Shown here piece by piece: positions 37,302 through 37,387 of a DNA stretch of 64,000 nucleotides (position 1 is the first letter of the stretch; each line of letters opens with the position of its first letter). The notes under the pieces are model-generated. The model was given only the letters and a program-made list of their open reading frames with translations, made no database searches and was not told where the DNA came from. The translations under genes and the position numbers were made by a program. Location of the stretch: the NCBI RefSeq assembly GCF_053078305.1, contig NZ_CP166879.1. One strand, written 5' to 3'.

Positions 37302-37326
37302 GCCCCTGTAAAATCAGGGGCTTTCT
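37302..37326 (+). terminator. intrinsic terminator-like hairpin after hsdS
   Basis: GCCCCTG-TAAAAT-CAGGGGC followed by TTTCT. Confidence 0.45.
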
Positions 37327-37387
37327 GGTAAGGTTTTCTACTGATACAGGAATGCTTACCAGAAATTAGCCAGGGTTGGAGCGCGAT

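Follow-up and report, generated by a model that had tools for sequence, protein, structure and literature searches.

How does a restriction-modification cassette keep the output of its nuclease gene apart from that of its modification genes? Type I enzymes have to restrain their nuclease subunit for as long as the methyltransferase is protecting the chromosome, and a 2025 review noted that very little is known of transcriptional control in these systems (PMC12707154). The window, which is the whole 64-kb stretch of E. coli DNA analyzed here, raises this question in a concrete form. Between hsdS and hsdR it carries an inverted repeat that a first-pass annotation, made from the letters alone, had read as an operator or an RNA structure that could control hsdR separately from hsdMS. 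In this study, we have explored the anatomy, conservation and distribution of the hsdS-hsdR spacer to ask what kind of element it is and how it might act on hsdR.

The host locus

By gene order and neighbors, this region of the window is the immigration-control region of E. coli, with cstA/btsT-like, yjiX, yjiA, brnT/brnA, an mrr-like gene (33058-34224), hsdM, hsdS, hsdR, symE, yjiS and yjiR in succession. Between yjiA and the mrr-like gene, the minus strand holds a BrnT/BrnA-type toxin-antitoxin pair (~32281-32857), so named in the annotation of the syntenic TUM13936 and ST131 records. In EC958 (ST131), the system at the same position is an hsdM-hsdS-hsdR operon beside mrr, with an R subunit 92% identical to that of StySBLI (PMC4659465). 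Because HsdR of the window is 99% identical to ST131 HsdR, and because gene order and neighbors match as well, the cassette is by homology a chromosomal Type ID system of the StySBLI, EcoR9I and KpnAI family (Table 1). Its relation to the solved Type IC EcoR124I HsdR is distant, the match being confined to residues 142-510 (E = 2e-24).

The start of hsdS was set at 35893 by same-length homology to the annotated TUM13936 gene, while the program-made open reading frame starts at 35860. Compared with the intact 1620-nt TUM13936 gene, hsdM has suffered a 4-bp deletion (CAGC) after 35017, and this frameshift leaves two overlapping frames, one of 251 aa and the other of 287 aa. The present strain therefore probably has an inactive Type ID system, though its spacer is intact. 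No regulator gene was found in the cassette among mrr, hsdM, hsdS, hsdR and symE.

Table 1. Positions, in the window, of the cassette genes and of the parts of the hsdS-hsdR spacer
Feature	Position	Strand	Description
hsdM	34288-35903	+	With hsdS encodes the modification methyltransferase; split in two frames here
hsdS, specificity subunit	35893-37293	+	Pfam Methylase_S; stop TAA 37291-37293
Linker, hsdS stop to hairpin 1	37294-37301	+	8 nt, CGCATTTT
Hairpin 1, terminator-like	37302-37321	+	7-bp stem GCCCCUG/CAGGGGC, 6 G-C pairs, 6-nt loop
Hairpin 2, 5′ arm	37322-37332	+	UUUCUGGUAAG; doubles as interrupted U-tract/tail of hairpin 1; includes 37325-37332
Hairpin 2, upper part	37333-37354	+	Internal loop 37333-34 and 37353-54
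Hairpin 2, upper stem	37335-39 / 37348-52	+	UUUCU / AGGAA; includes the conserved U·G pair
Hairpin 2, variable loop	37340-47	+	8 nt
Hairpin 2, 3′ arm	37355-37365	+	CUUACCAGAAA; includes 37355-37362; no U-tract after
Linker and hsdR translation-initiation region	37366-37387	+	12 nt, Shine-Dalgarno GGAG 37378-37381, 6 nt, ATG 37388
hsdR, Type ID family	37388-40651	+	1087 aa

Anatomy of the spacer

The whole hsdS-hsdR spacer measures 94 nt, and the first-pass annotation had placed its parts in the right order: the end of hsdS, a terminator-like hairpin, the inverted repeat and then the hsdR ribosome-binding site. The 8-nt repeat that it described is real, since CTGGTAAG (37325-37332) and CTTACCAG (37355-37362) are exact reverse complements with 22 nt between them, and so is the terminator-like hairpin 5′ of the repeat (GCCCCTG-TAAAAT-CAGGGGC, 37302-37321), hereafter hairpin 1. 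What it underestimated was the extent of the repeat. The 8-nt arms are present, but they form part of perfect arms of 11 nt, TTTCTGGTAAG (37322-37332) and CTTACCAGAAA (37355-37365), and the imperfect arms reach a total of 18 nt each, at 83% complementarity and with 8 nt in between. Two features had been overlooked: the 5′ arm of the repeat is at the same time the U-tract of the terminator-like hairpin, and only 8 nt lead from the hsdS stop codon to that hairpin.

RNA folding, which had been proposed as a check, predicted two hairpins for the 94-nt spacer with a z of −4.25 against shuffles. In this predicted fold, the repeat forms hairpin 2: its lower stem has 11 bp and is joined through a 2x2 internal loop to an upper stem of 5 bp (UUUCU/AGGAA), which is capped by a loop of 8 nt. 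Hairpin 1 adjoins hairpin 2 without any unpaired base between them, and from hairpin 2 only 22 nt then remain to the hsdR ATG. For the spacers of E. coli, Klebsiella, Citrobacter and Pragia, whose z ranges from −2.2 to −4.25, the MFE and the centroid fold both consist of the two abutting hairpins, and the same arrangement is the RNAalifold consensus of 38 distinct variants. The MFE and centroid structures coincide, and no competing helix for the terminator arm, of the kind that an attenuator-type alternative fold would need, was predicted. Occlusion of the terminator by a ribosome would work without any need for an RNA antiterminator. A closing helix between the hsdS stop region (CAUA) and the hsdR start (UAUG) appeared in the single-sequence fold and was set aside, having no comparative support.

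An 8-bp-arm repeat on its own is not beyond chance, because ~32 inverted repeats with such arms and a spacer of at most 40 nt are expected per 64 kb in dinucleotide shuffles (65 were observed). Perfect inverted repeats with 11-bp arms number seven in the window against 0.5 expected. The six others (arms of at least 11 bp, spacer of at most 40 nt) have their centers at ~7127, 22337, 26121, 59832, 63113 and 63954, and are probably terminators or REP-type elements.

Distribution and homologous loci

In a search of 5426 complete E. coli genomes, the 94-nt spacer was found at full length and in the chromosome of 861, at 886 places, and every match was the full hsdS-hsdR spacer. This prevalence is similar to what has been published for Type ID systems at the immigration-control locus and hotspot 37, 12% plus 3% (PMC12707154). 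Type ID cassettes are carried by about one in six complete E. coli genomes, ST131, ATCC 25922 and the type strain among them. The plasmid search returned a single match, on an 834-kb E. coli record, and the element is therefore essentially chromosomal. When metagenomes were scanned with hairpin 1 plus TTTCTG as the anchor, 68 of 71 matches were the same hsdS-hsdR spacer and the other three were due to chance. Dispersed copies of the REP/BIME, ERIC or MITE-end type were not found: the module is present as a single copy in the window and only as the hsdS-hsdR spacer in the 5426 E. coli genomes.

A scan for HsdR with one genome per species gave 78 loci. The two-hairpin module is present in all loci whose HsdR is at least 84% identical, and its carriers comprise E. 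albertii, Citrobacter, Pluralibacter, Enterobacter, K. grimontii, K. pneumoniae, Superficieibacter and Pragia fontium. The linker between the hsdS stop codon and hairpin 1 is 8 nt long in 28 homologues, 9 nt in nine and 5 nt in one. Relatives with HsdR at most 77% identical are organized differently: some (Vibrio, Shewanella) carry a 250-290-nt spacer of unrelated sequence, and in very many there is abutment or overlap between the upstream gene and hsdR, the gaps being −11 to +23 nt. Because of this abutment in distant relatives, the ancestral arrangement was apparently a coupled operon, into which the structured spacer would have been inserted in one clade. A covariance model of the module, run over 690 kb of related loci plus the window, matched only the ten loci already known and nothing else in the window; the module is thus not detectable in Tolumonas, Vibrio, Shewanella and more distant relatives.

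Several of the homologous loci have features of their own. In many distant HsdR relatives (L019-L052), the gene directly upstream is not recognizably hsdS and lies at gaps of −11 to +4 nt from the hsdR start, an arrangement suggestive of accessory genes that have been inserted and whose translation is coupled to that of hsdR. In Vibrio splendidus (L016, 2740-2892; similarly L014, L017 and L056), the ~260-nt hsdS-hsdR spacer contains a long imperfect hairpin (~110 nt, −54 kcal/mol, z = −5.6) and, after it, a 22-nt tandem repeat in ~2.8 copies, AGTTCTAAGGTGACGAAGGCGA; the same position is here occupied by another structured element. The ~290-nt spacer upstream of hsdR in Shewanella (L015, 2766-2972; similarly L065) is made of short tandem repeats, namely GACTCA x7.8, AACAGGCA x5.8 and T/G-rich units of 32-33 nt x2.2-2.4. 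Pragia fontium (L011, 2958-3000) has an extra insertion of ~20 nt between hairpin 2 and the hsdR ribosome-binding site, which forms a third small hairpin, GGGCGAUUAAAUCGUGCCC.

Conservation and selection

Conservation in homologous loci had been named beforehand as a check on the repeat, and the outcome was strongly positive, with spacers 83-89% identical between genera of Enterobacteriaceae. When E. coli was compared with six Enterobacteriaceae loci, drawn from five other genera, spacer identity was 0.83-0.89, against 0.44-0.47 at the four-fold degenerate sites of the adjoining hsdR, a value close to saturation. This contrast indicates, at the level of sequence comparison, strong purifying selection on the spacer. 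Even between Pragia and E. coli, where the four-fold sites of hsdR are 38% identical, the spacer retains 61%. Averaged per column over seven other loci, agreement with E. coli was 0.83 in the spacer and 0.47 and 0.55 at third codon positions on its flanks.

This constraint is specific to the spacer: the 3′ end of hsdS gave no sign of additional constraint at the nucleotide level, its codon identity (0.37-0.64) being set against an hsdR background of 0.54 ± 0.13. Further upstream, at codons ~151-200 of hsdS (its central conserved region, locus L155), synonymous codon identity between ST131 and the other genera reaches 0.75-0.94, compared with the same hsdR value. Recombination or gene conversion is a possible cause, as is an extra constraint on the nucleotides.

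Within the spacer, the Enterobacteriaceae loci vary in 5 of 46 paired columns versus 17 of 38 unpaired ones (Fisher p = 0.0009), and most of the variation falls within the two loops, at the internal-loop positions and in the linker that follows hairpin 2. Over the 38 variants, which were pooled from the species-locus and metagenome searches into one alignment, the stem of hairpin 1 is invariant save for two G·U changes, whereas its loop is variable.

RNA structure or DNA site

The first-pass annotation had left it undecided whether the repeat is an operator or an RNA structure, and the comparative data favor the second and disfavor the first. Read on the sense strand, substitutions in the stems give nine G·U pair types (56 cells) versus a single A·C, and this sole A·C case is an alignment artefact in Pragia. 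The U·G pair of the upper stem is kept in 34 of 38 variants and is U-A or C-G elsewhere, and the plus strand folds more stably than the minus strand in 32 of 38. Between their arms, 26 variants have 22 nt, 11 have 21 nt and one has 20 nt. Since substitutions avoid the stems, since those that occur are compatible with G·U pairing in the sense strand, and since the arm spacing varies from 20 to 22 nt, a sense-strand RNA hairpin in the hsdS-hsdR transcript is favored by the alignment over an operator in duplex DNA.

Covariation gave no signal: compensatory double substitutions were seen at none of the 25 pairs across the 38 variants, and the covariation score was 0.041 versus 0.042 for shuffled alignments. 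A clade of Citrobacter, Enterobacter and Superficieibacter has a U·C mismatch fixed in its lower stem, and Pragia has G·A at the same pair. The stems are kept by near-invariance of their sequence, which a purely structural role does not need, and this hints at a sequence-specific partner or at overlapping signals, for example the 5′ arm serving also as the tail of the terminator. A scan of Rfam 15 at a permissive E-value gave no credible match, the best overlap being isrK at 18.1 bits (gathering threshold 50, E = 0.23).

Terminator and promoter signals

Hairpin 1 has the sequence features of an intrinsic terminator, that is, a GC-rich 7-bp stem with six G-C pairs, a 6-nt loop and a U-rich tail (TTTCTGGT, 5 T in 8), and it is the only terminator-like site reported on either strand between 36800 and 37800. 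Its U-tract, UUUCUGGU, is interrupted and is shared with hairpin 2, whose 5′ arm it forms. Since no U-tract comes after it, hairpin 2 is not an intrinsic terminator; the bases that follow are AAAUUAGCC in E. coli and, among the other genera, AAAACCAGCC or a similar sequence. In all variants, the hsdS stop codon lies 5-9 nt from hairpin 1. At terminator tR2 in E. coli, termination fell from ~90% to under 10% when a stop codon was shifted so as to lie 5 bp instead of 28 bp ahead of the terminator, an effect that depended on translation of the upstream gene (PMC4824070).

A scan with the sigma-70 consensus, which is blind to weak promoters and to those of alternative Sigma factors, detected no promoter in 36800-37800, the spacer included. 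When the scan covered the whole hsd region, the weak sigma-70 matches within hsdS were confined to 36683-36804, upstream of its conserved 3′ end. As there is no sigma-70-like promoter in or near the spacer, hsdR is most simply expressed via read-through from hsdMS. Two kinds of candidate were discarded: the −10-like TAAAAT in the loop of hairpin 1 lacks both a −35 and conservation across genera, and sigma-54- and sigma-E-like strings were checked by eye and rejected.

Discussion

From the structure and conservation that we observed, we infer, tentatively, a set of functional steps in which a leaky, ribosome-sensitive terminator is combined with a hairpin that forms on read-through, so that hsdR expression is uncoupled from that of hsdMS and lowered. 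The genes hsdM, hsdS and hsdR would be transcribed in one direction, with hsdR mRNA arising by read-through of hairpin 1. Hairpin 1 would act as an intrinsic terminator with an interrupted U-tract, whose 5′ arm is occluded by a ribosome that is ending hsdS. Because hairpin 1 begins 8 nt after the hsdS stop codon, the finishing ribosome would cover this arm; termination would thus be partial and be set by how tightly translation follows transcription. Some polymerases would then continue into hsdR, preferentially on messages whose hsdS is under translation.

In the read-through RNA, the U-tract would pair with the downstream CUUACCAGAAA to give hairpin 2, stacked on hairpin 1. The resulting rigid block of ~64 nt between the cistrons may stop ribosomes that terminate at hsdS from re-initiating at hsdR; coupling of this sort is probably present in distant relatives with overlapping genes. 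By analogy with intercistronic stabilizing hairpins, the block could also be a barrier to RNA decay or a processing point that favors hsdMS over hsdR mRNA. The net effect would be less HsdR than HsdM and HsdS, with HsdR made only from messages on which hsdS is translated. Such an outcome would suit a nuclease subunit that does harm as long as the methyltransferase has not yet acted. Control of hsdR by the element, independent of hsdMS as first suggested, is a reasonable reading of these data; a specific role for hairpin 2 apart from hairpin 1 is the weakest step of the model.

Other explanations of the spacer have to be weighed against this one. If the repeat were a DNA operator, its invariant arms of 11-12 bp would be the half-sites of a dimeric or tetrameric regulator that represses or activates hsdR transcription. 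Arms that are nearly invariant and free of compensatory changes, around a variable center and just upstream of hsdR, do give the site the classic look of a palindromic operator. However, such a regulator would have no promoter-like site in 36800-37800 to act on, the cassette supplies no regulator gene, and the Type I methyltransferase is ruled out as the binder since its specificity differs between alleles, so that it cannot bind a conserved site. The half-sites would also have to tolerate a spacing that is not fixed, and neither the strand asymmetry of the stem substitutions (G·U rather than A·C) nor the upkeep of an inner 5-bp stem with its conserved U·G would be relevant to duplex DNA. We therefore regard an operator as very unlikely. 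A chance palindrome, or a functionless relic hitch-hiking with the cassette, would agree with the abundance of 8-bp-arm repeats expected by chance and with the lack of covariation, but 11-bp arms are rare on the same expectation and the stems exclude substitutions. Above all, the far better conservation of the spacer than of adjacent silent sites across genera effectively refutes this explanation, which we find scarcely credible.

The remaining alternatives keep the RNA and change its role. Hairpins 1 and 2 might be a compound terminator and nothing more, ending the hsdMS transcript, while hsdR is served by an unrecognized promoter of its own in the manner of EcoKI Pres/Pmod. The terminator-like make-up of hairpin 1 agrees with this, two-hairpin clusters within 80 nt of stop codons have been reported as common termination units (PMC8355165), and EcoKI does have separate promoters for hsdR and hsdMS (PMC12707154). 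What renders it quite unlikely is that only 22 nt separate hairpin 2 from the hsdR ATG, that no sigma-70-like hexamers occur in or after the module, that the −10-like candidates in the loops vary among genera and that hairpin 2 has no U-tract. Moreover, ordinary terminators keep structure and not sequence, whereas this spacer is ~85% identical where silent sites are saturated, and an hsdS stop codon 8 nt from hairpin 1 predicts poor termination under coupled translation (PMC4824070). Hairpin 2 could instead be the sequence-specific target of a protein (RNase III, ProQ/Hfq-type chaperones or CsrA) that sets the fate or translation of hsdR mRNA. Stems that are invariant without covarying suggest that sequence, and not just shape, is recognized; UUACAGGAA is nearly invariant in Enterobacteriaceae, with a second GGA 29 nt downstream in the Shine-Dalgarno sequence, and a CsrA route might run via ACAGGAA and the GGAG of the ribosome-binding site. 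The succession of lower stem, internal loop and upper stem also resembles that of processing hairpins such as RNase III substrates. Yet Pragia lacks the GGA and has ACUGAAA, the GGA lies in the stem and not in a loop, the helix of ~18 bp-equivalents is shorter than the ~20 bp typical of RNase III sites, no Rfam family matched, and nothing points to a particular factor. Recognition of this kind is, in our view, unlikely.

A bolder form of the same idea is that a trans-acting factor recognizing the invariant stems of hairpin 2 makes it a dedicated, sequence-specific post-transcriptional switch gating HsdR synthesis. We hold this to be decidedly unlikely. Candidates for such a factor would be an RNA-binding protein or an RNase of the host, or else the system's own methyltransferase or HsdR acting on RNA. 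If true, gating through hairpin 2 would give Type ID systems a "modify first, restrict later" delay. Type IA and IB systems obtain this delay through ClpXP proteolysis.

Returning to the leaky terminator with its read-through hairpin, the two-hairpin spacer most likely holds production of the nuclease below that of the protective methylase, by a mechanism that we infer from sequence. If it is only a leaky terminator plus a stabilizing hairpin, it would be a routine operon feature; what lifts it slightly above the routine is its unusually strong conservation at the nucleotide level, together with the scant knowledge of hsdR control in Type I systems, and in Type ID especially (PMC12707154). The element is of an ordinary kind and appears to be undescribed for Type ID. 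No description of spacer stem-loops turned up in a full-text literature search whose reach did not extend to the original Type ID papers, where an earlier mention is possible. The spacer offers a concrete and easily mutated candidate for setting the ratio of HsdR to HsdM and HsdS and for surviving transfer to new hosts.

Each of the known systems that the spacer calls to mind shares only a part of its design. The REP elements between malE and malF, reportedly described by Newbury et al. in 1987, are intercistronic stabilizing hairpins for unequal operon expression. Like them, the spacer places a stable stem-loop block between cistrons needed in different amounts, and by analogy the upstream message would be expected to be protected and the downstream one lowered. 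Unlike them, the module occurs at one locus only, has no sequence relation to REP and, being confined to that locus, is not a member of the dispersed REP-type repeats. In lambda sib/tI retroregulation, read-through extends the same helix and creates an RNase III site that destabilizes the upstream gene. Here too, read-through of the terminator would create RNA pairing that is absent from terminated transcripts, but in a separate, adjacent hairpin.

The Type IA system EcoKI has separate promoters for hsdR and hsdMS and a terminator after hsdR (PMC12707154). In both cassettes a terminator-like signal lies between the nuclease gene and the genes for methylase and specificity, so that unequal expression would be possible; the gene order is reversed here (M-S-R), no second promoter was detectable in the regions scanned, and the family is a different one. 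In layout, the spacer also resembles leaky, ribosome-repressed terminators inside operons, exemplified by tR2 (PMC4824070), in that a GC-rich hairpin with a U-rich tail lies 5-9 nt after a stop codon, between co-oriented genes and with no recognizable promoter after it. Our putative terminator differs from these in that its U-tract is interrupted and forms the 5′ arm of a second conserved hairpin, and in that the nucleotide sequence of the spacer, not just its shape, has been kept across genera.
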